A stretch of 64,000 nucleotides of DNA from an uncultured Pseudomonadota bacterium (lineage in GTDB: Bacteria; Myxococcota_A; Polyangia; Fen-1088), in NCBI GenBank assembly GCA_963847705.1, contig CAWKBC010000027.1, forward strand, positions 512,001-576,000. Direction: 5' to 3'. The notes under the pieces are model-generated. The model saw nothing but the letters and a program-made list of their open reading frames with translations. It ran no database searches and was not told the origin of the DNA. The position numbers and the translations under genes are program-made. This document shows positions 1,431-17,565 of the stretch, piece by piece. Each line of letters begins with the position of its first letter. The first letter of the stretch is position 1.

Positions 1431-3215
1431 TCAGGTTCCGGGCGGCTGCCAGCCACCGAGGACCGTGGACGGCGAGCTCAACGTCGCGGCTTCCGAGGCG
1501 GAGATCTGCATCGAGCCGGCGTAACGCTTGCTCACGTCGACGGCGGTCCCCGAGGGGGTGACGCTCTGGTACTCCCAGAAGCGCAGCTGCGAGGCGTCGC
1601 TGCCGGCGGTGATGGTCCAGCCGACGGGGGCGATGTTGCTCGTCATCTGGCAGTTGACGTAAGCGACCATGCTGCCCGGGTACGCCGTCAGATCGATGCG
1701 CGCCAGCGCGATGCCGGTCGACACCGAGTCCGAGGTGAGCTTGCAGTCGACGAAGACGTAGCCGTAGGCCCCCGCCGCGTTGCGGGCCTGCACGATCACG
1801 CCGCCCGACCGGTTGATGGTGCGGATCTCGCAACTGTCGAAGTAGACGACGCCGCCCCCCCAGACGTAGTCGACGTTCCCCTCGATGAGGTCGTTCTTGG
1901 CGTAGATGCGGCCGTCCCACAGCAGCGTGTCCTGGTAGCTGATGACCGTCGCGTTGGTGACCACGCACTTGTCGCAGGTCTCGAGCCGGAGCGCCTCGGC
2001 CTGCGACCCCCCCTGTGGCGTCTGGTTGTAGACGGTGAGGTTGTTGATGACCAGGCCGTTGGTGCCGTCGGCGCCGAACAACGCGCGCCCCTTGGTGCTG
2101 GGGTTGAGATTGTTGTTGTTGGTCCCCTCGATGATCGTGCCGGTCTCGCTGGCCCCCTGGATGCTGACGTTGCTCTTCGACTTGAAGTAGACGATCTCGT
2201 GGTAGGTGCCGCTGGCCATGGAGACGGTGACGGCGGCCGTGTTGTTGGCCGGGATGAAGTCGAGCGCGCCTTGCAGCGAGCAGAACGGCGCCGAGCCGTC
2301 CAGCGCCACCCCGACCGCGGCCTTGTTGGTCGGCGCGGCGGAGGCGGTGGTGAACCGCCAGGCCGTCGAGCCGGTGACCACGAACGCGGCTCCCGACGAG
2401 CTCTTGATCGCGCCCGAGGCGACGTTGACGTAGTAGGTCTGGTTGTAGGTGAGCGGCTTCGACGGCAGGTAGACGACCACCGTGTCGCCGTCGACGTAGA
2501 CCGGCCGCTGGGAGGTGAACGTCATGCCGCCGTTGGTGGTGCTGAAGGTGCTGGCGCCGACGTCGACGGACGCCACCGCGGTCCCGCTGGAATTGAAGAC
2601 CTGGATGAGACCGGATGAGCCGATGGTGGGCGCCGCCGAGAAGGTGATGCGGAGCTGTGGATCGGGACAGACGTTGGTGCCGTTCACCGGCGGATAGACC
2701 GAGCTGGCGTTGCCGGGCGCGTTCCCGGTGCCGGTCGTGCCGCCCGTGCCCGTGGTCCCACCCGTCGCTGCGCCGCCGGTGCCGGTCGTTCCACCGGTCG
2801 CCGCTGTGCCACCGGTGCCGGTTGTGCCGCCGGTTCCGGCCTTGCCCGCCGCGCCGCCGGTTCCCGTCGTGCCGCCGGTTTCGGTCGTGCCGCCGGTCGC
2901 GCCCGACGTGCCGCCTTTGGCGCCAGCGCCCGCGGTCCCTGTCGCGCCACCCGTTCCCGCCCTGCCGCCACCACCGCCCGCGCCGGGCGAGCCGGCGGTG
3001 CCGCCGCCGCCGGTTCCCACGGCGCCGCCGCTCCCGTTGCCGCCCGTGGCGCTGACACCACCGCTGCCATTGCCGCCCCCCTCTCCTCGAGCGCTCCCGC
3101 CGGTGGCGTTGTCACCCCCGCTGCCCGAGCCGGCGTCGTTCGCCGTCTCGCTGTTGGCGCAGGCCGCGAGCACGATGGTGATGCAGGTGATGAGCGCGAG
3201 TCGGAGGTTCTTCAT
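1431..3215 (-). CDS. Pectinesterase (CE8) lipoprotein with Gly/Thr linker and Ig-like domain
   Basis: Start MKNLRLALITCITIVLAAC (lipobox), long TGG linker, Big_5-like segment, then CE8 motifs GTYHE, QAEAL, YQDTL, VDYVWG. The ORF-track start at 3527 is too far upstream. Confidence 0.85.
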   Translation of the reverse strand: MKNLRLALITCITIVLAACANSETANDAGSGSGGDNATGGSARGEGGGNGSGGVSATGGNGSGGAVGTGGGGTAGSPGAGGGGGRAGTGGATGTAGAGAKGGTSGATGGTTETGGTTGTGGAAGKAGTGGTTGTGGTAATGGTTGTGGAATGGTTGTGGTTGTGNAPGNASSVYPPVNGTNVCPDPQLRITFSAAPTIGSSGLIQVFNSSGTAVASVDVGASTFSTTNGGMTFTSQRPVYVDGDTVVVYLPSKPLTYNQTYYVNVASGAIKSSSGAAFVVTGSTAWRFTTASAAPTNKAAVGVALDGSAPFCSLQGALDFIPANNTAAVTVSMASGTYHEIVYFKSKSNVSIQGASETGTIIEGTNNNNLNPSTKGRALFGADGTNGLVINNLTVYNQTPQGGSQAEALRLETCDKCVVTNATVISYQDTLLWDGRIYAKNDLIEGNVDYVWGGGVVYFDSCEIRTINRSGGVIVQARNAAGAYGYVFVDCKLTSDSVSTGIALARIDLTAYPGSMVAYVNCQMTSNIAPVGWTITAGSDASQLRFWEYQSVTPSGTAVDVSKRYAGSMQISASEAATLSSPSTVLGGWQPPGT

Positions 3216-3508
3216 TGGGGTCCTGCTCCTGCCTGGACGGCCGGCTGAATGCCCACTCTGCCGCCGGTGCCAGGGGCGCCGCCTGTTCCAACGGTGCCAC
3301 CGGTGTGGATGGCCCCACCGGTCCCGGGAGTCCCTCCGGTCTCGAGCGTCCCGCCGGTGCCTGTCGCGCCACCTTTGCCGTCCGTGTTGGTCGCCCCGCC
3401 GGTTCCCGTCGCGCCACCGCTCCCTCCCGCGTCCACCTCCACCTCGGAGCTCTGACAGGCACAGGCAAGCAGGAAGGCGAGCAAGCTCGCGCGGATGGGG
3501 TGACGCAC
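3212..3508 (-). CDS. Small lipoprotein made only of a signal peptide and a Gly/Thr linker
   Basis: MRHPIRASLLAFLLACAC followed by TGG repeats. RBS-like GGAGG upstream; ATGA overlap with the CE8 start. Confidence 0.6.
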   Translation of the reverse strand: MRHPIRASLLAFLLACACQSSEVEVDAGGSGGATGTGGATNTDGKGGATGTGGTLETGGTPGTGGAIHTGGTVGTGGAPGTGGRVGIQPAVQAGAGPQ

Positions 3509-3573
3509 GGGGGGGACCTCCGGTCATGGCGCGGAATGGCGCCCGCCCCTCAATGCCGTCCGAGGCGTGTCTC

Positions 3574-3771
3574 GATCACGAAATCGGGCCCTGCGTGGCT
3601 CACATCAACGTGGCGCCGCACCTCGGTCGGTGCCCCCGTGTTGACGGGCGTCACACGATGCGACGCCAGGTGAGCCGTCCGGGGCTCAAGCCAACACTTC
3701 CGTCGAGACTTGTTCTCGAAGAGGTGCATCCCCGCGCCACGCGAAACCGACCGGGTGTCGATTTCGTGATC
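3574..3771. promoter_or_regulatory. 13-bp motif CGATTTCGTGATC in inverted copies in the divergent CE8/GH28 intergenic region
   Basis: gatcacgaaatcg at 3574-3586 is the exact reverse complement of cgatttcgtgatc at 3759-3771. Confidence 0.5.
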
Positions 3772-3849
3772 TGCCGGGACAGGTCGCTGCATTCACCGCC
3801 GGCGCGAGCAGTTCCCTCGCCCCGTCCCCGTCCCCCGCGGAGGCCCCCC

Positions 3850-5686
3850 ATGTTGTCCTCGCTGTCGCGCTCGTTCCCCAGTCCCCTCGTCGCCAGGCTC
3901 TGCGCTGGAGGGGGGTTCGCGCTCTTGCTGCTGGCGGGATGTGCGGAAGGCGGTGGGAGCACCACCGACAACGGGACAGGTGGGAGCGGGCCGACGGGTG
4001 AAACCGGGGGGAGCAGTGGGACCGGGGGCTCGGCCAGCGGCGGCAGCGTGGGGACCGGTGGCAACCGAGGGACTGGCGGCTCGGTGGCGACCGGTGGAGT
4101 CATCGGGACGGGGGGCACGACGGGGACGGGCGGCACCACGGCGACCGGCGGCACGACCGGCAAGGGCGGCGCCACCGGCACCGGCGGGACCACCGGGACT
4201 GGCGGTGCTTCGGCAACGGGGGGCACGACGGGGACGGGCGGCACGACGGCGACCGGCGGCACGACCGGCAAGGGCGGCGCGACTGGCACCGGCGGGACCA
4301 CCGCGACAGGTGGCACCACCGGGACTGGCGGTGCCTCGGCGACGGGCGGCACGCCGGGCACCGGCGGGACGACAACCGCGGGGACGTGCGGCGCGGGCGA
4401 CAGCAACATGCCGGCGCAGCCGACGTTGCCGTCGAGCCTCTGCGCGACGCTGTCGGCGACCAAGAACGTCGCCGCCAACGGCGTCCCCAGCGAGTCGAAC
4501 GCCGACACCTCGACGATTCAAGCGGCGCTGAGCGGCTGCGGCGCGGGCAAGGCGGTCAAGCTGGTGCAGAGCGGCTCGAACAACGCCTTTCTCACCGGGC
4601 CGATCACGGTCCCCTCGGGCGTCACCCTCTGGGTCGACACCGGGGTCACGCTGTACGGCACGCGCGATCCCAACGTCTACGGCTCGGCGGGCGCGCTCAT
4701 CGCGGTCAAGGGGGCCAACGCGGGGATCGTCGGTGGCGGCGTCATCGACGGGCAGGGGGGCGAGCCGAACGTCGGCAGCTCGTCGTCCTTCTGGGACGCG
4801 AACGGCAACGGCGGCTCGAGCCCCGCGCTGATCCAGGTGAGCAGCGCCACCAACTTCACGCTCTACCAGATCACGCTCCACAACGCGCCGATGTTCCACG
4901 TCAAGCTCTCGGCGGCCGGGTTCGTCGCCTGGGGCGTCACCATCAAGACGCCGTCGAAGTCGACCAACAGCGCGGGCACCGCGCTCACCTACACGAGCGC
5001 GCACAACACCGACGGGATCGATCCGGGCGAGTCGGCCAGCAACGGCTACATCGTCTGCAGCGAGATCAGCGACGGCGACGATCACATCGCCATCAAGGGG
5101 TCGAGCTCGTCGGGGGTCACCAACCTGACCATCGCGCACAACCATCTCGAGGCCGGCCACGGCATCTCGATTGGCAGCGAGTTCACCGGCGGCGTCTCGG
5201 GGATCAAGGTCTACGACATCGGGATCGATCAGAGCGGGACGGGCACCGGCGGCGGCAGCTCGAACGGGCTCCGGATCAAGTCCGACTCCAGCCGCGGCGG
5301 TCTGGTGAACAACGTCAGCTACAGTGACATCTGCATGCGCGGCGTGGCGAATCCGATCTTCCTGACGCCGACCTACTCGTCCTCCACCGGCAGCGACATC
5401 CCGCACTACACGAACATCACCTTCTCGAACATTCACTACCTGACGGGCGGCAGCAACTCGCCGACGGTGACGCTCGACGGGTACAGCTCCTCGTACATCA
5501 ACAGCGTCACGCTCGACAACGTCGTCTTCGACGCGACCCCCAAGGTGACGGCGTCGTACACCAACGTGACGCTGGGACCGGGCGACGGTGAGCTTCACGC
5601 CGTCGGGAACGGGGGTGACCGTCACCAACAAGGTCTCCGGCTCGTCGACGCCGAACCCCTGCACCAACAAGTTCGTGACCTTCTAG
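3850..5686 (+). CDS. Polygalacturonase (GH28) lipoprotein with Gly/Thr linker; apparent +1 frameshift near 5584
   Basis: Lipobox LLAGC; catalytic motifs HNTDG, GDD, GHG, RIKS. The C-terminus homologous to the paralog (VSFTPSG...PNPCTNKFVTF*) is in another frame and ends with TAG at 5686. The uncorrected ORF ends at 5724. Confidence 0.85.
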
Positions 5687-5690
5687 CGGC

Positions 5691-7229
5691 TCAGCCGCCG
5701 GCCGGCGAGAACGAGAACGGATAGGAGACCACGGCCAGGCCCCCGTGGTCGGGCTGCGGAAACTCCCAGCGCTTGACCGCGTTGACCAGGCAGCTGTCGA
5801 CGGCGGCGACGCCAAGCGACGAGCTTTGCACCACGGAGCTCAGCACGCGCCCGGTGGGGGCGATCGCGAACTGGACGACGATGCGCCCGGTGAGCGACGG
5901 TCGGGTGACGAGCGCCTGCTCGTAGCAGGACTTCACCTCGTTCAGGTGGCGACGGACGGTGCGGCGGATGATCTCTTTGTCGAGCGTTCCGTTCACGTGC
6001 AAGATCCCCGGAATGAAGCTCGGCACGGTGGATTGGCGCGTGTGCAGCCCGCCAACGCCGGGACCGATGCCGTAGACCGGACCGCCCTGGCCGCCGAAGC
6101 GACCGGTCGTTCCGAGCGGGCCGCCGCCGCCGATGGTCCCCTCGCGCTCGCCGCCGCCGCCGCGGCCGGTGCCTTTGACGCCCAGGCCACCCGGACCAAA
6201 GGCGGAGCCGGGATTCGAGGCGACCAGGTTTCCCACGATGTCTTGCACGTCGGCGCCCAGAGCCGGGCCGTCGGCGAAAACGTCGGCGAACGCGCTCTGC
6301 CGCGGGCCGTCGAGCACGGCCAGCAAGCTGTTGTCGTGAATCTGCGCCGCGACCGCCCGCGCATCTTGCGGGCGCGCGGTCCCTCTGATTGTCATGTGGC
6401 GGGAGGTGTCGTGCGACTTTCGATCGCCGGCCTGGCCAGGGGGCTTCGCGGCCGCCGCCGAGCCGCCTCCTCCGGCTGTTTGCGGCAGCGCGCGCGCACG
6501 GTCGATCTCGGGGGCGGTCATCTCCAGCGGGACGGTGATCAGCCGGGCCATCCGGCCCGGGGCGTCGAGCGTGTCGAGCGAGAGCGCGTGCGGATCGGAT
6601 GGAACGAGGTGCGCGAGCGCCAGCAGGAGGCCCAGCACGATCGCCACGGCCAGCGGGTACTTCACGCCGGCGCGCCAGCCTGAGGGGAGCCAGGGCCGGG
6701 GGACCGTCGCCGCCGGCTGCGCCGGTTCGAGGTCGAAGGTCACCTCGCCGCAAGGGACGTGCAGGCGGCTGCCCGGCGGTAGCATCAAGGGGGCTTCGGC
6801 GCGTCCGAGATCGGGCGCGAGCGGCAACGCCTGCCGCTCCGTCTGCAGAACGGCCCGCATTGCGGAGGTGAGGTTGAGAACGAACCCGCCCGGCGCCGGT
6901 TCGATGAACAGGTGGCGGCGCGGCGCCAGCGGATCGTTCATCTCGGGGAGCCAGGCGGGGTTCACCGGCGCGTCGGCGCCGCGCGCGTTCCCGATGGTGA
7001 AGCCTCGCGATTCGTCGCTGCGCAGCAGGCGGCTCGCCAGGGTGATGTCGCGAAAGCGGGCCGAGACGAGCAGCGCCGGCGTGGCGAGGCGGAGCGGCGC
7101 CGAGGCGACAGGCCTCGTCGTCGGGGCGTCGAGCTCGAACGGGGGGGCGCTGCCGGCGAGCGGGACGGGTGGTTGCGGCGGCAGGACGAGCGGTTGGCGT
7201 TGCGAGCGGCGTTGATCGACTGGGCGCAT
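5691..7229 (-). CDS. AgmX/PglI (GltG-like) protein with TonB C-terminal domain
   Basis: RBS AGGAGG before ATG 7229, one TM helix, Gly-rich region, and C-terminal LDKEIIRRTVRRHLNEVKSCYEQAL...GRIVVQFAI...CLVNAVKRWEFPQP...VSYPFSF. Confidence 0.8.
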   Translation of the reverse strand: MRPVDQRRSQRQPLVLPPQPPVPLAGSAPPFELDAPTTRPVASAPLRLATPALLVSARFRDITLASRLLRSDESRGFTIGNARGADAPVNPAWLPEMNDPLAPRRHLFIEPAPGGFVLNLTSAMRAVLQTERQALPLAPDLGRAEAPLMLPPGSRLHVPCGEVTFDLEPAQPAATVPRPWLPSGWRAGVKYPLAVAIVLGLLLALAHLVPSDPHALSLDTLDAPGRMARLITVPLEMTAPEIDRARALPQTAGGGGSAAAAKPPGQAGDRKSHDTSRHMTIRGTARPQDARAVAAQIHDNSLLAVLDGPRQSAFADVFADGPALGADVQDIVGNLVASNPGSAFGPGGLGVKGTGRGGGGEREGTIGGGGPLGTTGRFGGQGGPVYGIGPGVGGLHTRQSTVPSFIPGILHVNGTLDKEIIRRTVRRHLNEVKSCYEQALVTRPSLTGRIVVQFAIAPTGRVLSSVVQSSSLGVAAVDSCLVNAVKRWEFPQPDHGGLAVVSYPFSFSPAGG

Positions 7230-7330: not shown

Positions 7331-7921
7331 CTACTGAAAGTTCTGCACGGCCGTGATCTGACCGTTCACGGTGGCCATGCCGCAGGCGACCATCGTGTAG
7401 CTGGTGTTGGTCATGTTGATGAAGTGGCCGTACTTCTCGAAGCAGCTTCCGTCGCAGGGATCGGTGGGCGGCGGTCCCTCGTCGAACATCTGTTGCAAAC
7501 AGCCGCTGACGACGGAGGTCTCGGACGGCCAGGCGGGACACTCGTCCTGCGCGTACCCCTCGGGCGAGCAGATCCGCGCGATGAACCCCGCGTGCGCGCT
7601 GTGCGAGGGATCGTAGGCGGCGTCCTGGTCGGCGCAGGCCTCGCCGGCCGTCCAGCGGCTGAGCGGCGGAAGACAGACGCAGGCGCGGAACTGGTTCACC
7701 CGCGCCACGCAGTCGGCGTCGTAGTCACCGGTCTCGGGGGCCGTCGGCATGCAGGTGTCATCGGGGGTGCAGCCGCCGCCTCCGCCCGAGGAGCCACCTT
7801 GCCCAGCCTGCGCGCTCCCCCCGCCGCTCCCGCTGCCGTTCAGGGGGCCAGGCAGGGCGTTGCACGCCAGCCCCGCGACCCCCAGCAGCCCCCCGCGCAG
7901 CCAAGCCCTCCACCCCTGCAC
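7331..7921 (-). CDS. Cys-rich lipoprotein with CAP/SCP-like domain
   Basis: Lipobox GLAC; VARVNQFRA..LPPL, GHFINM, VACG and AVQNF match the CAP fold pattern. Confidence 0.65.
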   Translation of the reverse strand: MQGWRAWLRGGLLGVAGLACNALPGPLNGSGSGGGSAQAGQGGSSGGGGGCTPDDTCMPTAPETGDYDADCVARVNQFRACVCLPPLSRWTAGEACADQDAAYDPSHSAHAGFIARICSPEGYAQDECPAWPSETSVVSGCLQQMFDEGPPPTDPCDGSCFEKYGHFINMTNTSYTMVACGMATVNGQITAVQNFQ

Positions 7922-8004
7922 CGATCGAGGCTAGCACGCGCTCGATCGATGAACCCCAAGGGACGCGCGGGTCCCCGGACGCTCGCGTTCTCGGCTGTCC
8001 GCGA

Positions 8005-9366
8005 CTACCCCGGGTTCCCGGATCCGTCGCAGGTGTAGTACTGCTTGTAGGTCGAGTCGGCGTTGGAGACGTTGCCCTTGTACGCGCAGGTCGGCCGGCA
8101 GCAGTCCTGCATCGTCGTCGTGGTGTAGCCGGACGAGAAGCCCTTGCTCGACGCCGAGGTCATGTCGATGGCGGTCGGATCCGCCGCCGGCAGGTTCTGG
8201 GAATTGAGCTTGCAGCCGGTGACGCGGGTCAGGTTGGCCGGGCACTCGATCCGCTTGGCCATCACGTTCCAGTTGAGGTGATAGAGGTTCTGCGTCTGGC
8301 TCGTCTCCTCGCAGGAGACCTGCGTCGCGCTCTGCACCGCCGCGTTGCTCGCGGTGATCATGTCGCAGTCGCTGGCGATGGCCGACTGGCAGGACATGGT
8401 GGCGATCGACGAAGAGCTGAGCGCGCCCCCGGTGCCGGCGCACTGGCTGACGTTCTGCGCGCGGATGCCGCCGTTGTTCGGCTGGCCGATCGTGGGGTAG
8501 GCGGTGTACTGCTTGCTGCAGCCGGCGGTGTTGGCCCCCTCGCCGCCGCTCCCCATGAAGATGTCGAAGTTCTTGCCGCCGCCCGCGCCGGTGTTGAACG
8601 CCTGGACGATCATCGGTTTCGGAGTCGCGACGCCGGTCACGGCGTCGCGCGGCGAGGTGAAGACCAGCTGGTAGCACTGGCAGCAGGCGTTGCTGCCCGA
8701 CTCGGTGTCGAGGCCGCCCGTGTCCATGTCGTGACCGACGACGCCGTAGACGAATTGCGGGTTGGTCGGCGAGGCGAAGTCGTCCGTCTCGGCGACCTTG
8801 AGCTCCGGGCTGAAGACCATGTCGCGCGTGCACATGAAGGCGGGGCCGCCGTTGCAGCCGCTCCCCACCGTGTCGCCCGTGTTCGGTCCGTTGATCTTGT
8901 AGCTCGGGCAGGCGCCGCAGGAGCCGCCGCAGTCGACGCCGGTCTCGCTGCCGTTCTGCATGTCGTCCATGCACGACGAGGGTCCCGAGCCCGCGGTCCC
9001 GCTGTTTCCGCCAGCCGCGCCGCCGGTTCCGCTGGCACCTGCCAGGCCGCCGCCAGCGCCGCTGCTACCGCCTTTGGCGCCGCCGGTGCCCGTCCCACCG
9101 GTTCCCGCTCCGCCGGTGCTCGTCCCACCGGTTCCCGTGCCGCCGGTGCTCGTCCCGCCGGTGCCGGTCCCGCCGGTGCCGCTCTTGGTCCCGCCGGTGC
9201 CGGTCCCGCCGGTTGCCGTGCTGCCGCCGGTCGCCGCGCCGCCCGTCCCGGCGCCAGTCTGTCCACCCGTGGCGCCGGTCATGCTGTCGCTGGCAGCGCA
9301 TCCATGCAGGGCCACGGTGAACAGAGCGGTGGCCGTGAAACCAACTAAGCGAATCCGATTCTTCAT
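8005..9366 (-). CDS. GH45-like endoglucanase lipoprotein (circularly permuted) with Gly/Thr linker and a DCGG Cys motif
   Basis: Lipobox LHGC, GAGG RBS. GH45 motifs CCQCYQLVFTS, MIVQAFNTG, NFDI.MGSGG.G and ECPANLTRVTGC; the DCCRPTC motif sits at the C-terminus. Confidence 0.75.
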   Translation of the reverse strand: MKNRIRLVGFTATALFTVALHGCAASDSMTGATGGQTGAGTGGAATGGSTATGGTGTGGTKSGTGGTGTGGTSTGGTGTGGTSTGGAGTGGTGTGGAKGGSSGAGGGLAGASGTGGAAGGNSGTAGSGPSSCMDDMQNGSETGVDCGGSCGACPSYKINGPNTGDTVGSGCNGGPAFMCTRDMVFSPELKVAETDDFASPTNPQFVYGVVGHDMDTGGLDTESGSNACCQCYQLVFTSPRDAVTGVATPKPMIVQAFNTGAGGGKNFDIFMGSGGEGANTAGCSKQYTAYPTIGQPNNGGIRAQNVSQCAGTGGALSSSSIATMSCQSAIASDCDMITASNAAVQSATQVSCEETSQTQNLYHLNWNVMAKRIECPANLTRVTGCKLNSQNLPAADPTAIDMTSASSKGFSSGYTTTTMQDCCRPTCAYKGNVSNADSTYKQYYTCDGSGNPG

Positions 9367-9563: not shown

Positions 9564-11150
9564 ATGTCCCTTAGCCCGAGACTCTTCGTTCTCTTGCTCG
9601 CTCTCCTTCTCTCGTCCGCGTCGTGCGGCACGAACCAAGGACCGACGCTCACCGGCAGCGCCGGCGCCGGCGGAAGCACCGGCGCCGGGGGATCGGGTGG
9701 GAGCGGCGGCGCTGGCACGGGTGGCACCTCCACCGGCGGGAGCGCGGGACTCGCGACCGGAGGGAGCGGGACCGGCGGCAGCGCGGCAGGCGCGAATGGA
9801 ACCGCGGGGCGTGCCGGCCAGGCTGGAGCCTCGGGTGCCGGGGCCACCGGGAATCCTTGCGCGACGATCGATGCGACCCTCCCCGCGGAGCCGACGATCC
9901 CGCCGGCCTGCGCGACGCTCACGGCGAGCTTCGCGATCGTGACCGGCACGCCGCCCAGCGAATCGAGCCTCGACACCTCTCGCCTTCAGATGGCGTTGAA
10001 CGGCTGCGCGGCGGGGCAGGCGGTGCGTCTGACGACGAGTGGAACCAGCAACGGCTTCATCACCGGCCCGCTCAACGTCCCCACGGGCGTCTCGCTCTGG
10101 GTCGACAGCGGCGTCACTCTCTTCGGCACCCGCGATCCCAGCGTCTACGGGCAGGCGACGGCGCTCATCTCGGTGCGGGGCGCCAACTCCGGGATCGTGG
10201 GTCTGGGGGCGATCGACGGGCAGGGGGGCGAGCCGCAGATCGGCAGCACGATGTCGCCCTGGGACGTCAACGGCGGCGGCGGCGACAGCCCGGCCCTCAT
10301 CCAGGTGCTGGGGGCGACGAACTTCACCCTCTACGAGATCACGCTGCACAACGCGCCCAAGTTCCACGTCAAGCTCGGCGCGGCCGGCTTCGTCGTCTGG
10401 GGGATCACCATCAAGACGCCGTCGGCGGCCACCAACAGCGTGGGCACCAAGCTCTCCCCCTCGAGCGCGCACAACACCGACGGCGTCGATCCGGGCGAGG
10501 CCGCCAGCAACGGGTTCATCGTCTACAACCAGATCAGCGTCGGCGACGACCACATCGCCATCAAGGGCGGGACCAGCGTCCAGCACCTCACCATCGCGCA
10601 CAACCACTTCGAGGCCGGGCACGGCATGTCGATCGGCAGCGAGACCAATGGCGGCGTCTCCGACGTCACCGTCTGCGATCTCTCGATCGACGGGACCAAC
10701 ACCGGCCTTTCGGGCGGCAGCGCCAACGGCATCCGGATCAAGTCGGATCCGAGCCGCGGGGGTCTGGTGCAGAACATCTTCTACGGGGACGTCTGCGTCC
10801 GGGCCCTCACCAACCCGATCATCCTGACGCCGATGTACTCGAGCGCCACCGGGACGGAGTACCCGCACTTCACGGGGATCACGATCCAGAACTTCCGCTC
10901 GATGAGCACCTCGACCACGCCAAAGGTGACCCTGCTCGGCTACGACGCCACCCATATGCTCGGTCTGACGCTCGACAACGTGGTGGTCGATGACCTCATC
11001 TCGGCGAACGTTTCGGCCTCCTACGCGGACATCACGCTCGGACCCGGCAGCGTGAGCTTCACCCCCTCGGGCTCGAGCGTCACGGTGAGCAACGAGGTGT
11101 CGGGCTCCTCGACCCCCAACCCCTGCACGAACAAGTGGGTGACTTTCTAG
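9564..11150 (+). CDS. Polygalacturonase (GH28) lipoprotein, paralog of 3850..5686
   Basis: Signal ending SASC, Gly/Thr linker, motifs HNTDG, GDD, GHG, RIKS. Confidence 0.9.
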   Translation: MSLSPRLFVLLLALLLSSASCGTNQGPTLTGSAGAGGSTGAGGSGGSGGAGTGGTSTGGSAGLATGGSGTGGSAAGANGTAGRAGQAGASGAGATGNPCATIDATLPAEPTIPPACATLTASFAIVTGTPPSESSLDTSRLQMALNGCAAGQAVRLTTSGTSNGFITGPLNVPTGVSLWVDSGVTLFGTRDPSVYGQATALISVRGANSGIVGLGAIDGQGGEPQIGSTMSPWDVNGGGGDSPALIQVLGATNFTLYEITLHNAPKFHVKLGAAGFVVWGITIKTPSAATNSVGTKLSPSSAHNTDGVDPGEAASNGFIVYNQISVGDDHIAIKGGTSVQHLTIAHNHFEAGHGMSIGSETNGGVSDVTVCDLSIDGTNTGLSGGSANGIRIKSDPSRGGLVQNIFYGDVCVRALTNPIILTPMYSSATGTEYPHFTGITIQNFRSMSTSTTPKVTLLGYDATHMLGLTLDNVVVDDLISANVSASYADITLGPGSVSFTPSGSSVTVSNEVSGSSTPNPCTNKWVTF

Positions 11151-12410: not shown

Positions 12411-14774
12411 TCACCCCACGGTCGACGAGCCCGCAGGCTCGGCCGTCAGGAACGCGTTGGTCGCCGGGTCGGCCCGCAGCAGGTTGGCGAAGAGCCAGAC
12501 GAAGGCGAAGAACAACAGCAGCGTCGAGTCCTGGAAGTGCCGATCCAGATCCGGATCGAGCGAGGCCCAGTAGCCGCCGATGCAGAGCACGAGGAGCGGC
12601 GTGGCGACGCGCTGGAATGGCACGACCAGCGGGATGGTTTTGGGTTGTGCCCCGTCTGGCCCGGCCGACGCCCGCGAGACGCCAGCGTCGGCGAGCAGCG
12701 CGAGCAAGAAGATGAAGTGGCTGTAGTAGTTCGACGGGTTGGAGATCACCAGCACGAGCGGCATCGCCAGCACCATCGCCTGATGGAGCGGCCTGCGGCG
12801 CGCCAGGAGCGCGACGCAGGCGATGCAGAGGATCTCGCAGCCGATGAAGATGACCAGGCGCGCCTGGAACACGGCGCCGGACATGCTGTCAGCCCCGGCG
12901 ATGAGCGCGCGCAAACTGATCTCGTTCACGCCCACGTCCCGGTTGAGCAGCGTGACCTTGTGGAACCAGCTGACCCAGGCGCCCGGTGAGTAGAGGATCG
13001 CCGTGAGCCCGACCATGAAGACGATGCAACCCGCGGCGCTCAGGAGCACCTGCACCGTCGCCCGCTGCTCCGCCAGCCAAGGCCGGAGCGCCGGCCGCTG
13101 GCGGTCCTTCAGCCACTGCTCGCCGAAGGCCCAGAGCGCCGGCAGCGCCACCCCGAGCAGCGCCACCACCGGGAAGAACCTGATGAGCGCCGAGAGCGCC
13201 AGGCAGATCCCCGCCGCCGTCCAGTGCTCGCGTTTGAGGGCGGCGGCGCCAAAGCCCAGCAGCGCCAGCCAGTCGTGGCGCAGGGTCGCGCCGGTCCAGT
13301 TGGTGCCGAACATGTAGAGGTCGTTGGCCCCGAACACGGTCATCGCCAGCAACATCGGCCAGAGGCCAAACGACCGCCAGAGCGCCACCGCCATCAGCAG
13401 CAGCAGCAGGGCGTCGACGAGGCCGGTGGTGATCAGCAGCCCTTCGGACGCCGGGGCGTGGGCCATGAGCAATCGCCCGAAGAAGACCCACACCGGGGTG
13501 GCGTTGGCGCCATGATCGGTGAGCGTGGAAAGGTATTCCGGCCCCATCACATTCTGGAAGTAGTTCATGTCTTTCTTGAACTCTATCCAGCGCTCCGGGC
13601 TGAACCGATCGCGCACCCCTCGAATCTCGTCCTCGATCTCGCGCACGTGCCGGATCCGGTGGTCGCCGAGACCGCGCAGCTCCTGCGTTCCGAGCGAGTC
13701 GAGCGATCCCCCCCGGTGGTCCTCGGCGTAGGCCAGCACGCTGGCGGTGTAGACGCCGTCGTAGCCCAGCTCCTTGAAGTACTTGGCGAACGGCTGGTAG
13801 ACGCGCAGGTCGTTGGTGTGGACGAACTCGGGGCGGTTCTCCTCGTGGTTCCAGAACTGGGGCCGACCGAGGTTGTAGAAAGCCAGAAAGGCCACGATCG
13901 CGCTGGTGGCGAGCGCGGCCGTGACGACGGAGCGGTGGGCCGGCCAGCGCCTGCCCGGGATGGCGGCCCGCGCCGCCGCGAGGAGCGCGATGGCGGCGGC
14001 CGTCGCGCGGACGAACGCCACCTCGCGGTTGACGAGCGGCCATCCGGTGGAGATGGCGTCGACGACGAAGCCGAGCGCGACCAGCGGGAGGAGCGCCACC
14101 AGCGCAACCACCCAGCGCCGCGACCGGCTCTGCGTCACCGCCAGCAGCAGGCCGAACGCCGCGATCAGGTAGAGGAGCGAGGACCGGACCGCGGCCGCCT
14201 GGTTCTGGCCGGCCAGTCGGTGCAGCTGCGGGGGCATCACCGACGGGGGGTGCTCGAAGAGCTGCAGCTCCGCGACCGAGTAGGCCGAGTCGCCGCCGCG
14301 AACGGTGAGGCGAACCCAGCGCCCGTGCGCGGAGAGCTGGTCGGTCCAGCGCTGGCGCATCCCCGGTTCCGGGCGCGGCTCCGCCGTCCAGAGCGGAACG
14401 AAGTTGGCATGGTCCTCCGAGATCGACACCACGTACTCGTCATTGTTGTCCCCCTGGAGGTAGCCGGCAGCGATGGGGACGCTGCGGCCGAGGTCGTACT
14501 CGGCGTAGGCCCTCTCGGAGCTGAACAGCGCGGCGACCGAGCTGTTCCATTCATCCCCCTCGAAGGCGTCGACGCCGTCGGTGATCGCGCGGGCATTGGA
14601 GACGCCCGAAGAGGACGACGGGCGAAGACCCGCCAGGAGGTTGTCGTCGGCCCGCGCCGGGCGTGCGGCGCTGGTCGCCAAAAGCCCGGCGACGAGACAG
14701 ACGAGAGGAAGGAGCAGGGGGGCGATTCGCCGGCGCCGGTGGGGCGAATGTACGAGCATGTGGGTGATCGTCAT
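12411..14774 (-). CDS. Polytopic membrane protein: discoidin/F5-8-like domain plus GT-C (GT87-like) glycosyltransferase-like region
   Basis: Signal peptide, AITDG..YAEYDLG..GRWVRL..SVAELQLF, many TM segments, and a soluble loop beginning HTNDLRVY. Confidence 0.55.
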   Translation of the reverse strand: MTITHMLVHSPHRRRRIAPLLLPLVCLVAGLLATSAARPARADDNLLAGLRPSSSSGVSNARAITDGVDAFEGDEWNSSVAALFSSERAYAEYDLGRSVPIAAGYLQGDNNDEYVVSISEDHANFVPLWTAEPRPEPGMRQRWTDQLSAHGRWVRLTVRGGDSAYSVAELQLFEHPPSVMPPQLHRLAGQNQAAAVRSSLLYLIAAFGLLLAVTQSRSRRWVVALVALLPLVALGFVVDAISTGWPLVNREVAFVRATAAAIALLAAARAAIPGRRWPAHRSVVTAALATSAIVAFLAFYNLGRPQFWNHEENRPEFVHTNDLRVYQPFAKYFKELGYDGVYTASVLAYAEDHRGGSLDSLGTQELRGLGDHRIRHVREIEDEIRGVRDRFSPERWIEFKKDMNYFQNVMGPEYLSTLTDHGANATPVWVFFGRLLMAHAPASEGLLITTGLVDALLLLLMAVALWRSFGLWPMLLAMTVFGANDLYMFGTNWTGATLRHDWLALLGFGAAALKREHWTAAGICLALSALIRFFPVVALLGVALPALWAFGEQWLKDRQRPALRPWLAEQRATVQVLLSAAGCIVFMVGLTAILYSPGAWVSWFHKVTLLNRDVGVNEISLRALIAGADSMSGAVFQARLVIFIGCEILCIACVALLARRRPLHQAMVLAMPLVLVISNPSNYYSHFIFLLALLADAGVSRASAGPDGAQPKTIPLVVPFQRVATPLLVLCIGGYWASLDPDLDRHFQDSTLLLFFAFVWLFANLLRADPATNAFLTAEPAGSSTVG

Positions 14775-16281: not shown

Positions 16282-16521
16282 TGGGCCCGGTGCCGTAAGA
16301 AACTTCAACGCGCTGCCCACCTTCCCGGCTCCAACGTGCGGGCTCTCGTGCAGTCCGGAAATGCAACGTCTGGCGCGGGACCCGGCAAAAAGTCGCCGCC
16401 GCGGATGAGGTCTTGCTTTCGCCCCATCTGCGGCGGATTCTCGAACCTTCGAGCCCGGCGAGCATCTCGTGCGTGCCCCCAGGTCGCCCCGGCTACCCCC
16501 CAGTTGCCCGAGGAGATCGTC

Positions 16522-17565
16522 ATGAAGCCTCACTCGCGATCGTTGGTTTCGCCGCGCGGCCTCGGCGCCTCCCTGGTTCTGGTGAGCGCGCTGGTGGTGG
16601 CGCCTCGCGCCGCACGGGCGCACATCAAGATGTCAGCGCCGGCGGACTGGATCGTGACCAACTCCGAGGGCGACCCTCAAAAGATCACCCCCTGCGGCGT
16701 CGATCCGACGATGCCCATGACCTTCACCGTCACGAACGCCGTCACCACCCTCCACGTCGGCGACAAGGTCACGTTCAACTGGACCGAGACCGTCCCTCAC
16801 GATGGCCACTTTCGGATCGCGCTGGCGATCAACTCGCGCGACGAGCTGACGGATCCCGCCGTCACCCAGATGAACTCGGACGGGACGGCGGCCGCGGTCG
16901 CGATCTCGACCGCCTACCCGGTGCTGGCCGACAACCTCTTCCCTCATACCGCCGCCTCCGTTTCGCCCGGCAAGGCTTACACGTACACGGTGACCATCCC
17001 CAACACCCCGTGCACGAAGTGCACGATGCAGCTCCTGCAGTTCATGGCCAATCACCCGCTCGACCCGTCGTACTTTTATCATCAGTGCGCTGACGTCACG
17101 ATCCTCGCGGCGGCCGGCAGCGGCGCGACCGGCGGCACCACCGGCGCCACGGGCGGCAGCAGCGGCGCTGCCGGCAAGACGGGCGGCGCCGGCGGCGCGA
17201 CCACGGGTACGGGGGGAACGGTGGCGGGCACGGGCGGAACGACCACCGGGACCGGAGGAGCCGTGAGCGGCACCGGCGGCGCGACCACGGGCACGGGCGG
17301 AACGGCCACGGGCACGGGCGGGACGGCCACGGGCACGGGCGGGACGAACGCGGGCACCGGCGGCACCGCGGAGAGCAGCGGCAGCGGGGGGAGCGGGGCG
17401 ATCGGCGCCGGCGCCAGCGGCAACGGCGGCGGTAGCCCCGAGGGCGCCGGGTCGAGTGGTGGCTGCGCTTGTCAGCTTGGCGCGGCAGACGTGGGGTCGA
17501 GCGGACTCGGGTTTCTGGGCGTGGTGGCCCTCATCGGCATCCGCCGGCGCCGGCGCGCGCGCTGA
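16522..17565 (+). CDS. SCE4755-family polysaccharide monooxygenase-like protein with MYXO-CTERM anchor
   Basis: Signal ending ARA-H (His1 of the mature chain), QK..PCG, WTETVPHDGHFRIA, CTKCTMQLLQFM, YHQCAD; Gly/Thr linker; GGCAC..hydrophobic..RRRR tail. Confidence 0.85.
   Translation: MKPHSRSLVSPRGLGASLVLVSALVVAPRAARAHIKMSAPADWIVTNSEGDPQKITPCGVDPTMPMTFTVTNAVTTLHVGDKVTFNWTETVPHDGHFRIALAINSRDELTDPAVTQMNSDGTAAAVAISTAYPVLADNLFPHTAASVSPGKAYTYTVTIPNTPCTKCTMQLLQFMANHPLDPSYFYHQCADVTILAAAGSGATGGTTGATGGSSGAAGKTGGAGGATTGTGGTVAGTGGTTTGTGGAVSGTGGATTGTGGTATGTGGTATGTGGTNAGTGGTAESSGSGGSGAIGAGASGNGGGSPEGAGSSGGCACQLGAADVGSSGLGFLGVVALIGIRRRRRAR

Follow-up and report, generated by a model that had tools for sequence, protein, structure and literature searches.

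A lipoprotein-like gene of an uncultured Polyangia bacterium encodes a GH45 domain that appears to be a natural circular permutant

A gene on the minus strand of the window, the whole 64,000-nucleotide stretch of DNA that was analysed, encodes a GH45 domain in which the canonical N-terminal block stands at the C-terminus. This arrangement is almost certainly a circular permutation. The natural circular permutant proposed by an earlier sequence-only reading is borne out by swapped sequence matches, a large collinear family, a GH45 subfamily-A core fold and paired cysteine losses. The product is predicted from its sequence to be a surface-tethered inverting endo-beta-1,4-glucanase acting on plant-wall glucan, with beta-1,4-glucanase as its main activity, at a probability of roughly 0.6; that it is an active glycan hydrolase of some kind is predicted with high confidence.

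Gene architecture and the swapped order of motifs

The earlier assignment to 8005-8950 covers the catalytic domain, and the gene itself extends to an ATG at 9366, with a GAGGTG site directly upstream on the minus strand. Residue numbers below refer to the full product (P0001), from which the domain used in most analyses (P0002, 322 aa) is numbered by subtracting 131, and canonical numbers refer to Humicola insolens EGV. The features of the gene are as follows.

8005..9366, minus strand: whole gene, a single open frame from ATG 9366 to the stop at 8005-8007, product of 453 aa
9298..9366, minus strand: signal peptide with a lipobox-like LHG-C23 at its end, from the sequence
8974..9297, minus strand: Gly/Thr/Ala/Ser stalk, residues 24-131, by composition count
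8908..8973, minus strand: small four-Cys module CMDDMQNGSETGVDCGGSCGAC, residues 132-153, distinct from GH45, by repeat matches in other proteins
8209..8901, minus strand: GH45 core, residues 156-386, canonical ~36-200, by phmmer against PDB, AF2, Foldseek and VIA
8728..8736, minus strand: G211-H212-D213, Gly at the Ala74 position followed by a His-Asp pair, by alignment to 5GLX/5GLY
8563..8565, minus strand: D268 in NFD, equivalent of the catalytic acid Asp121, by alignment and census
8140..8208, minus strand: linker, residues 387-409, from the canonical C-terminus to the moved block, from the sequence
8008..8139, minus strand: moved block, residues 410-453, canonical ~1-38, by phmmer against PDB
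8104..8106, minus strand: D421, equivalent of the catalytic base Asp10, by census

The signal has a basic start followed by a hydrophobic stretch, and a His at position -2 is atypical of the lipobox consensus. The first Cys, found within residues 11-45, stands in xx[GAS]C in 67 of 99 long relatives, and lipid anchoring at C23 is plausible. The Gly/Thr stalk described earlier ahead of the GH45 domain is indeed there (48 G, 24 T, 14 A and 13 S among 107 residues counted). The module behind it reads C-x-D-x-x-Q-N-G-x-E-T-G-V-D-C-G-G-x-C-x-x-C, has low pLDDT and no Pfam match, and occurs in 111 of 120 close relatives versus 1 of 120 members of a distant clade. It also forms long tandem arrays, with up to 39 matched stretches, in unrelated secreted proteins (P0156, P0161-P0178), many of which carry metallopeptidase and C-terminal sorting domains and two of which are named Bacteroidota. 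The module looks like an unnamed repeat family.

The core comprises five barrel strands and an enlarged helical region. It carries SGCNGGPAFMC (residues 169-179) and CCQCYQLVFTS (residues 228-238), followed by MIVQAFNTG, NFDIFMGSGGEG with D268, GCSKQY and IECPANLTRVTGCK, which runs to K386. After the 23-aa linker, which AF2 models at pLDDT 92-96 and which relatives' contigs from other sequencing runs bridge, come GYTTTTMQDCCRPTCAY with D421, then YYTCD and then the stop. Every motif quoted in the sequence-only reading was found, in the order given there and in one minus-strand frame. The moved block holds strand 1, T417 (Thr6), M419 (at the Tyr8 position), D421, C422, C423, C427 and C446, and its stretch G413-C427 corresponds to window positions 8086-8130.

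Comparison with known structures places these segments in swapped order. A phmmer search of the 322-aa domain against 177,635 PDB sequences gave 12 matches, among them 10 GH45 chains (E 1e-8 to 3e-5), with query residues 35-172 aligned to chain residues 47-156, 240-260 to 189-209, and 280-316 to chain residues 4-37. A profile of seven canonical Polyangia GH45s matched in swapped order in 154 of 177 proteins and in canonical order in 0 of 177; 17 of the 23 non-swapped proteins match solely through the Cys repeat. The moved block keeps the register T-x-x-x-D-C-C-[KR]-P-[ST]-C-x-[WY] with a later C-D. Where canonical enzymes have T-x-Y-W-D-C-C at the N-terminus, the permuted gene reads T-T-M-Q-D-C-C at the C-terminus, and the replacement of YW by MQ (M419-Q) noticed earlier is real. 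The approximate cut is at canonical residue 36-38, with the core starting at YKINGP and the block ending in CDGSGNPG.

Standard profiles see only part of this protein. PF02015 matches the trimmed domain in one stretch, model positions 46-167 of 214, at 41 bits against a cut-off of 27, and this match together with PDB GH45s at E 1e-8 places the domain in GH45 by sequence similarity. Of the two PF02015 hits in swapped order that had been foreseen, one partial stretch on the trimmed domain was obtained and no second, swapped match. The full-length protein gave no Pfam match at E<=10 and no NCBIfam match, so the expectation that standard HMMs would score the permutant partially was correct. Of 401 genomes of the phylum, PF02015 matches six, with the partial pattern in the own genome only; as the model is insensitive to the permutant, this is no sign of absence elsewhere. 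Precomputed PF02015 matches cover 27 of the 120 listed homologues of the window's domain and 0 of the 120 listed for a distant query. The nearest ESM Atlas clusters are GH45, at scores of 0.82 or lower, which is a lead only.

The rearranged family, its fold and the docking of the moved block

Used as a query, the window's domain found 726 homologue clusters at near length, with 56-100% identity among the 120 listed; the DCC block lies near the C-terminus in 118 of these, and the remaining two are truncated or frameshifted. A distant member found 528 clusters, and all 120 listed end in MEDCC. In a census of 415 distinct domains, chosen on core motifs only, the C-terminal block pattern is present in 403, MQDCC with a variant tail in 7 more, and 5 are cut or frameshifted, so that 410 of 415 carry the moved block. 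An upstream, N-terminal [YF]WDC was found in 0 of 400 scored domains. Both Asp equivalents named in the sequence-only reading are present and near-invariant: the base D421 in all 403 domains in which the block was scored, and the acid D268 in 399 of 400 scored domains, with His in a single member (P0222) and Asp seen by eye in three rows that the pattern missed.

Matches occur in 56 of the 89 genomes of the host's taxonomic family, and many of them keep two to three permuted paralogues. By title, 30 named genome loci come from Polyangia, Myxococcales, Myxococcota, Polyangiales/Polyangiaceae, unspecified proteobacteria and one Cellvibrionaceae, and metagenome contigs add 381 confirmed relatives. 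Among 57 matches in longer proteins, 40 are family members and 17 share the Cys module alone; the representatives-search counts of 2471, 591 and 102 are diluted by this repeat and are not family sizes. Runs holding the window stretch do so at shares of 0.29 or less, and portions of the gene are covered by relatives' contigs from RNA libraries, which do not show transcription. Frameshifted or split copies also occur among relatives (L032, P0074, P0101, G465:C32, G472:C3, G407:C1).

AF2 on 84 sequences modelled the domain at pLDDT 86 and pTM 0.88, with a strand at domain residues 280-287, in the moved block, at pLDDT 90-96. Foldseek returned 10 matches under E 0.001, all subfamily-A GH45 (E 5e-8 to 7e-7, 22-26% identity). 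VIA-align over 48,161 chains placed two GH45s at Z 13.5 (rmsd 2.7, 175 aligned, 6MVJ) and 13.2, and the next row from outside subfamily A at Z 3.1. Both methods align in sequence order, so their aligned range is the core (model 28-266) and the moved block lies outside it; for the core, AF2, Foldseek and VIA agree on a double-psi beta-barrel with subfamily-A loops. A BFVD fold search listed 35 rows, none of them under E 0.001.

The position of the moved block was approached through its cysteines. In Humicola EGV the N-terminal block is tied by disulfides that we take to be 11-135, 12-47, 16-86 and 31-56, and all eight cysteine equivalents are present in the permuted protein. Among 400 domains, Cys 422 and 283 are both present in 396, both absent in 3 and discordant in 1; in addition, P0435 and P0443 have neither, and the tree places both apart from the first three losers. 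Cys 427 and 228 are both present in 399 and both absent in one (P0322). C423 is lost in three members (L031 and its kin P0316; P0330), in each of which the C171 equivalent is also absent by inspection. A control pair within the core, 229/385, is complete in 375 of the 400 domains, absent in 24 and discordant in 1. The comparison covers three of the four block pairs (422/283, 423/171 and 427/228) and amounts to about five separate paired losses versus two unpaired ones (L072, P0286), kin not being independent. D421 adjoins C422, and the partner of that cysteine, C283, follows D268 at a distance of 15 residues.

Removal of the block points the same way. A core-only model built from the same alignment fell to pLDDT 78 and pTM 0.82. 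Across domain residues 124-173, pLDDT without the block was 73, 77, 58, 69 and 65 versus 84, 90, 83, 88 and 87 with it, and across 34-53 it was 60 and 63 versus 77 and 89, while the helical part dropped less, to 79-92 from 89-95. Model confidence is not stability, and the drop falls where the block should touch. Mean-field coupling (310 sequences, effective 85) was noisy and carries no weight here; two pairs in the expected register, G133-T284 and N135-T284 in domain numbering, ranked 35 and 54. Because block cysteines are lost with their core partners and removal of the block lowers confidence near the acid Asp, the moved block likely docks in its usual place in the barrel.

Two rival explanations concern the permutation itself. 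The protein might be an N-terminally truncated GH45 with an unrelated C-terminal strand, a reading that can draw on the change of YW to MQ and on the scores of the last 45 residues alone against PDB, each of them weak (E 0.02-0.15). The best five of the seven matches in that search are nevertheless all GH45 N-termini, the Cys-motif register is kept, and block cysteines vanish together with their canonical partners, which leaves truncation very improbable. We give almost no credence to an assembly artefact or a recent accident in one genome. The sequence does come from a binned genome, 84.7% complete and 6% contaminated, and a few relatives are frameshifted. Against this stand the 726 and 528 homologue clusters, collinear matches that reach the C-terminus in 51 of the 89 genomes of the family (table count), relatives' contigs from independent runs that span the junction (X15 record 8002-8253, X16 8097-8359), and near-equal GC3 in core (0.97) and moved block (0.98).

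Remodelled active site, clades and predicted function

The permuted domains keep D268, D421, T417 (Thr6) and N258, with an aromatic residue at 429 in the window gene's clade. D268 corresponds to Asp121 in [H/N/Q]FD, the catalytic acid, and D421 to Asp10 in D-C-C-x-P-x-C, the catalytic base, roles described in excerpts of PMC5829257. The surroundings of this pair are altered throughout the bacterial clade: Tyr8 is replaced by M419, Trp9 by Q/E and Ala74 by G211; Asp114 is deleted, falling in a gap of the 5GLX/5GLY alignment where the loop ahead of D268 has no Asp; and the Tyr147 position is mostly non-aromatic, with Asn in the window gene. New invariants of the clade are H212, D213 and D220, and G211-H212-D213 is found in 314 of 314 members of a set itself selected on GHD.

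The three accessory residues of canonical subfamily A, Tyr8, Ala74 and Asp114, are each changed here (M419, G211 and a gap), which, set beside the beetle data that follow, speaks more strongly than anything else against simple endoglucanase activity. In beetle GH45s, according to excerpts of PMC6509783, Asp114 changes correlated with loss of activity in five proteins and not in two others, Asp114 to Glu accompanied xyloglucanase activity, and Ala74 to Gly was suggested as the cause of activity loss in two. Because Asp114 is deleted, Ala74 is Gly and the His-Asp pair is new, the substrate and activity are more open than the word endoglucanase implies.

The distribution of these changes separates clades. 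A viral scan with a narrow alignment found 0 of 41 candidates, and a broader alignment of distant permuted proteins found 13 viral-collection loci, 11 of them named GVMAG, a label that we take to mean giant-virus bins. In 12 of the 13, a G-[FY]-D loop occupies the Asp114 position and His-Asp is missing, yet TTMQD and the Gly at Ala74 are shared. These are permuted GH45 genes in giant-virus-type contigs (L072-L083); a second viral-collection type (L071) lies inside the His-Asp clade. By pattern, 348 domains divide into 320 with His-Asp only, 14 of Asp114 type only, 8 with both and 6 pattern misses, the 8 forming one small bacterial group with the Asp in a different loop sequence.

A tree of 43 rows and 208 columns was built from the shared core, leaving the moved block aside and with SH-aLRT as its sole support measure. 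Seven myxobacterial canonical sequences served as outgroup, and P0439 and most near-duplicates were left out. A long branch splits 36 permuted rows from the 7 canonical Polyangia rows (SH-aLRT 100); 27 His-Asp rows group together (96), and eight Asp114-type viral rows (99) and P0435 stand outside them. A root on the canonical side is supported because GH75 V-Csn has a base-equivalent Asp near its N-terminus, as stated in excerpts of PMC9485262. Given that root, we infer that the permutation came first and the loss of Asp114 later, and the data are consistent with a single origin of the permutation; tandem two-domain intermediates were not found among 40 long relatives. The origin would be a single ancient event, probably a tandem duplication followed by trimming, with a cut near canonical residue 36-38; the change of YW to M[QE] would have arisen together with it, and the loss of Asp114 would have followed in the window gene's clade. 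A tentative and somewhat doubtful extension is that an old GH45 branch rearranged its chain a single time, spread through myxobacteria as well as other cellulose-binding bacteria and giant viruses, and later underwent a two-step rebuild of the active site. In this rebuild, His212-Asp213 would have replaced the Asp114 loop and provided the large bacterial clade with a new substrate or catalytic assist.

In the proposed mechanism, the permuted domain would sit on its Gly/Thr stalk, tethered to the surface through the likely lipoprotein signal. The C-terminal strand would insert into the double-psi barrel, pinned by four disulfides (C422-C283, C423-C171, C427-C228 and C446-C179), and D421 would face D268 as Asp10 faces Asp121. 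In EGV these two carboxyls are 11.3 A apart (PMC5829257). D268 would protonate the glycosidic oxygen and D421 would activate water, an inverting reaction. More weakly, the His212-Asp213 loop might make the substrate contacts formerly provided by the deleted Asp114 loop.

In favour of endoglucanase activity stand the near-invariance of both Asp, the carbohydrate-binding modules of relatives and neighbours that act on pectin and polysaccharides. Among the 40 long relatives, precomputed Pfam places CBM2 in 8 and CBM3 in 8 (16 of 40 in all), and a re-scan of 12 confirmed six CBM2/CBM3 proteins, one of which also carries CBM10. The neighbours of the permuted gene in the window, and the canonical GH45 locus of the same genome, are the following.

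1431-3527, minus strand: pectin methylesterase with a Big_5 domain behind a Gly/Thr stalk, by Pfam; its true start is probably the internal MKNLRL
~3700-5724 and 9564-11150, plus strand: two paralogous GH28-like lipoproteins on Gly/Thr stalks, flanking the gene; the second is GH28 by Pfam
5691-7229, minus strand: AgmX/PglI C-terminal domain protein, downstream of the permuted gene on the same strand
7331-7921, minus strand: CAP-domain lipoprotein-like gene, just below the Pfam cut-off, downstream of the permuted gene
12411-14774, minus strand: 787-aa membrane protein with no significant Pfam match
16519-17562, plus strand: SCE4755-family polysaccharide monooxygenase-like protein with MYXO-CTERM, by NCBIfam, with a weak LPMO_10 match
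L001:1483-2661 (G000:C27:323104-326757), minus strand: canonical GH45 lipoprotein, from the sequence
L001:384-1358, plus strand: convergent neighbour of the canonical GH45, from the sequence; its motifs presumably recall a GH8 enzyme

The GH28 neighbour is conserved in just 9 of the 30 loci, each from a close relative. The two GH28-like paralogues cross-match at ~62% in relatives; the tail of the first departs from its paralogue after 'GPG', which suggests a frameshift of the assembly near 5620-5640. In 9 of the 30 loci the membrane protein accompanies the permuted gene, with identities of 70-92%, and an SCE4755-type relative adjoins the permuted gene in one locus (L019). The canonical GH45 lipoprotein lies ~195 kb away from the permuted gene. 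Its presence hints at a different job for the permuted one, and the two may differ in substrate. A need of the permutation for N-terminal anchoring is ruled out, the canonical paralogue having the same signal and stalk.

The permuted fold and its Asp pair could also serve another glycan, such as xyloglucan, glucomannan, mixed-linkage glucan or an amino-sugar polymer, in a cleft remodelled by Met for Tyr8, Gly for Ala74, the missing Asp114, the new His-Asp and the absence of a Tyr147 equivalent. These changes are invariant across the clade, the canonical paralogue coexists with the permuted gene and many genomes hold two to three permuted copies; small changes at Asp114/Asp121 go with xyloglucanase activity in beetle GH45s (excerpts of PMC6509783), and GH75, with the same barrel and an N-terminal Asp, is a chitosanase (excerpts of PMC9485262). 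The CBM2, CBM3 and CBM10 fusions point instead to cellulose-rich material, although hemicellulases can carry such modules. For GH75 itself there was no Pfam match and no chain among the Foldseek/VIA matches listed, a listing that may leave out a matching family. We judge another main substrate unlikely, if still a serious candidate. A protein of expansin/loosenin type that binds glucan or loosens walls with little or no hydrolysis, its Asp pair kept for binding, would fit the three changed accessory residues, whose loss is linked to inactivity in beetle GH45s (excerpts of PMC6509783), and the His that P0222 has for the acid Asp. Expansins, however, lack an Asp10 equivalent (excerpts of PMC5829257), and here both Asp and Thr6 are near-invariant, from close relatives out to members that share ~27% identity with the distant query, with closed subfamily-A loops retained. 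Where expansins, loosenins and subfamily C combine an absent Asp10 base with an open groove, the permutant has an invariant Asp and a subfamily-A Z of 13 versus 2-3 (weak VIA matches of its core to 3X2G, 1WC2 and 1N10 at Z 2.3-3.1). A wall-loosening role is distinctly improbable, and a beta-1,4-glucanase remains the preferred reading.

Significance and comparison with known systems

Industry uses GH45 cellulases, and the two-Asp mechanism of the family is well studied. A natural permutant whose cleft has been rebuilt offers a direct test of that mechanism's need for Tyr8, Ala74 and Asp114, and shows how a disulfide-pinned barrel tolerates new termini. Clades that keep Asp114 and clades with His-Asp form a ready pair for functional comparison. 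Because the full-length protein escapes Pfam and NCBIfam, counts probably underestimate how far uncultured soil Polyangia, and some giant viruses, can break down cellulose. Should the two-step rebuilt branch prove true, it would amount to a new CAZy subfamily with well above a thousand members, mostly missed by Pfam, and would include overlooked viral wall-degrading enzymes.

The sequence-only reading knew of no description of this arrangement, and the open-access literature, including that on GH45 in Myxococcota and giant viruses, yielded no description of a circularly permuted GH45; a brief mention elsewhere is possible. The CAZy curators distinguish four groups within GH45 and three activities, the known ones being endo-beta-1,4-glucanase, xyloglucanase and mannanase, and the excerpts of their account do not speak of permutation (PMC10461819).

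The reference systems are the subfamily-A enzymes Humicola insolens EGV/Cel45A (2ENG, 3ENG, 4ENG, 1HD5), Thielavia terrestris Cel45A (5GLX, 5GLY), Neurospora crassa Cel45A (6MVI, 6MVJ), Melanocarpus albomyces (1L8F, 1OA7) and Cryptopygus antarcticus CaCel (5H4U). GH45 subfamily C (PcCel45A), expansins and GH75 V-Csn share the double-psi barrel and a conserved acid, according to excerpts of PMC5829257 and PMC9485262; PcCel45A and expansin lack the Asp10 equivalent (excerpts of PMC5829257), whereas the permutant keeps it. The canonical paralogue of the same genome (G000:C27:324604-325257, in L001) has the same lipoprotein-type signal and Gly/Thr stalk but, unlike the permutant, shows canonical order, an N-terminal SRYWDCC and a full PF02015 match (1-212).

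With subfamily A the permutant shares the core fold, the acid and base Asp, Thr6, the cysteine set and the CP...TGC end motif. It differs in carrying residues ~1-38 at the C-terminus and in its size, ~300 versus ~210 aa, with a helix inserted after the Cys56 equivalent and a larger helical region. Its cleft also departs from that of subfamily A, with Met-Gln for Tyr8-Trp9, Gly for Ala74, Asp114 deleted, Asn for Tyr147 and a new His-Asp. Because the canonical order and the three accessory residues are absent, we file it, on sequence grounds, as a permuted lineage derived from subfamily A, and not as a canonical member.
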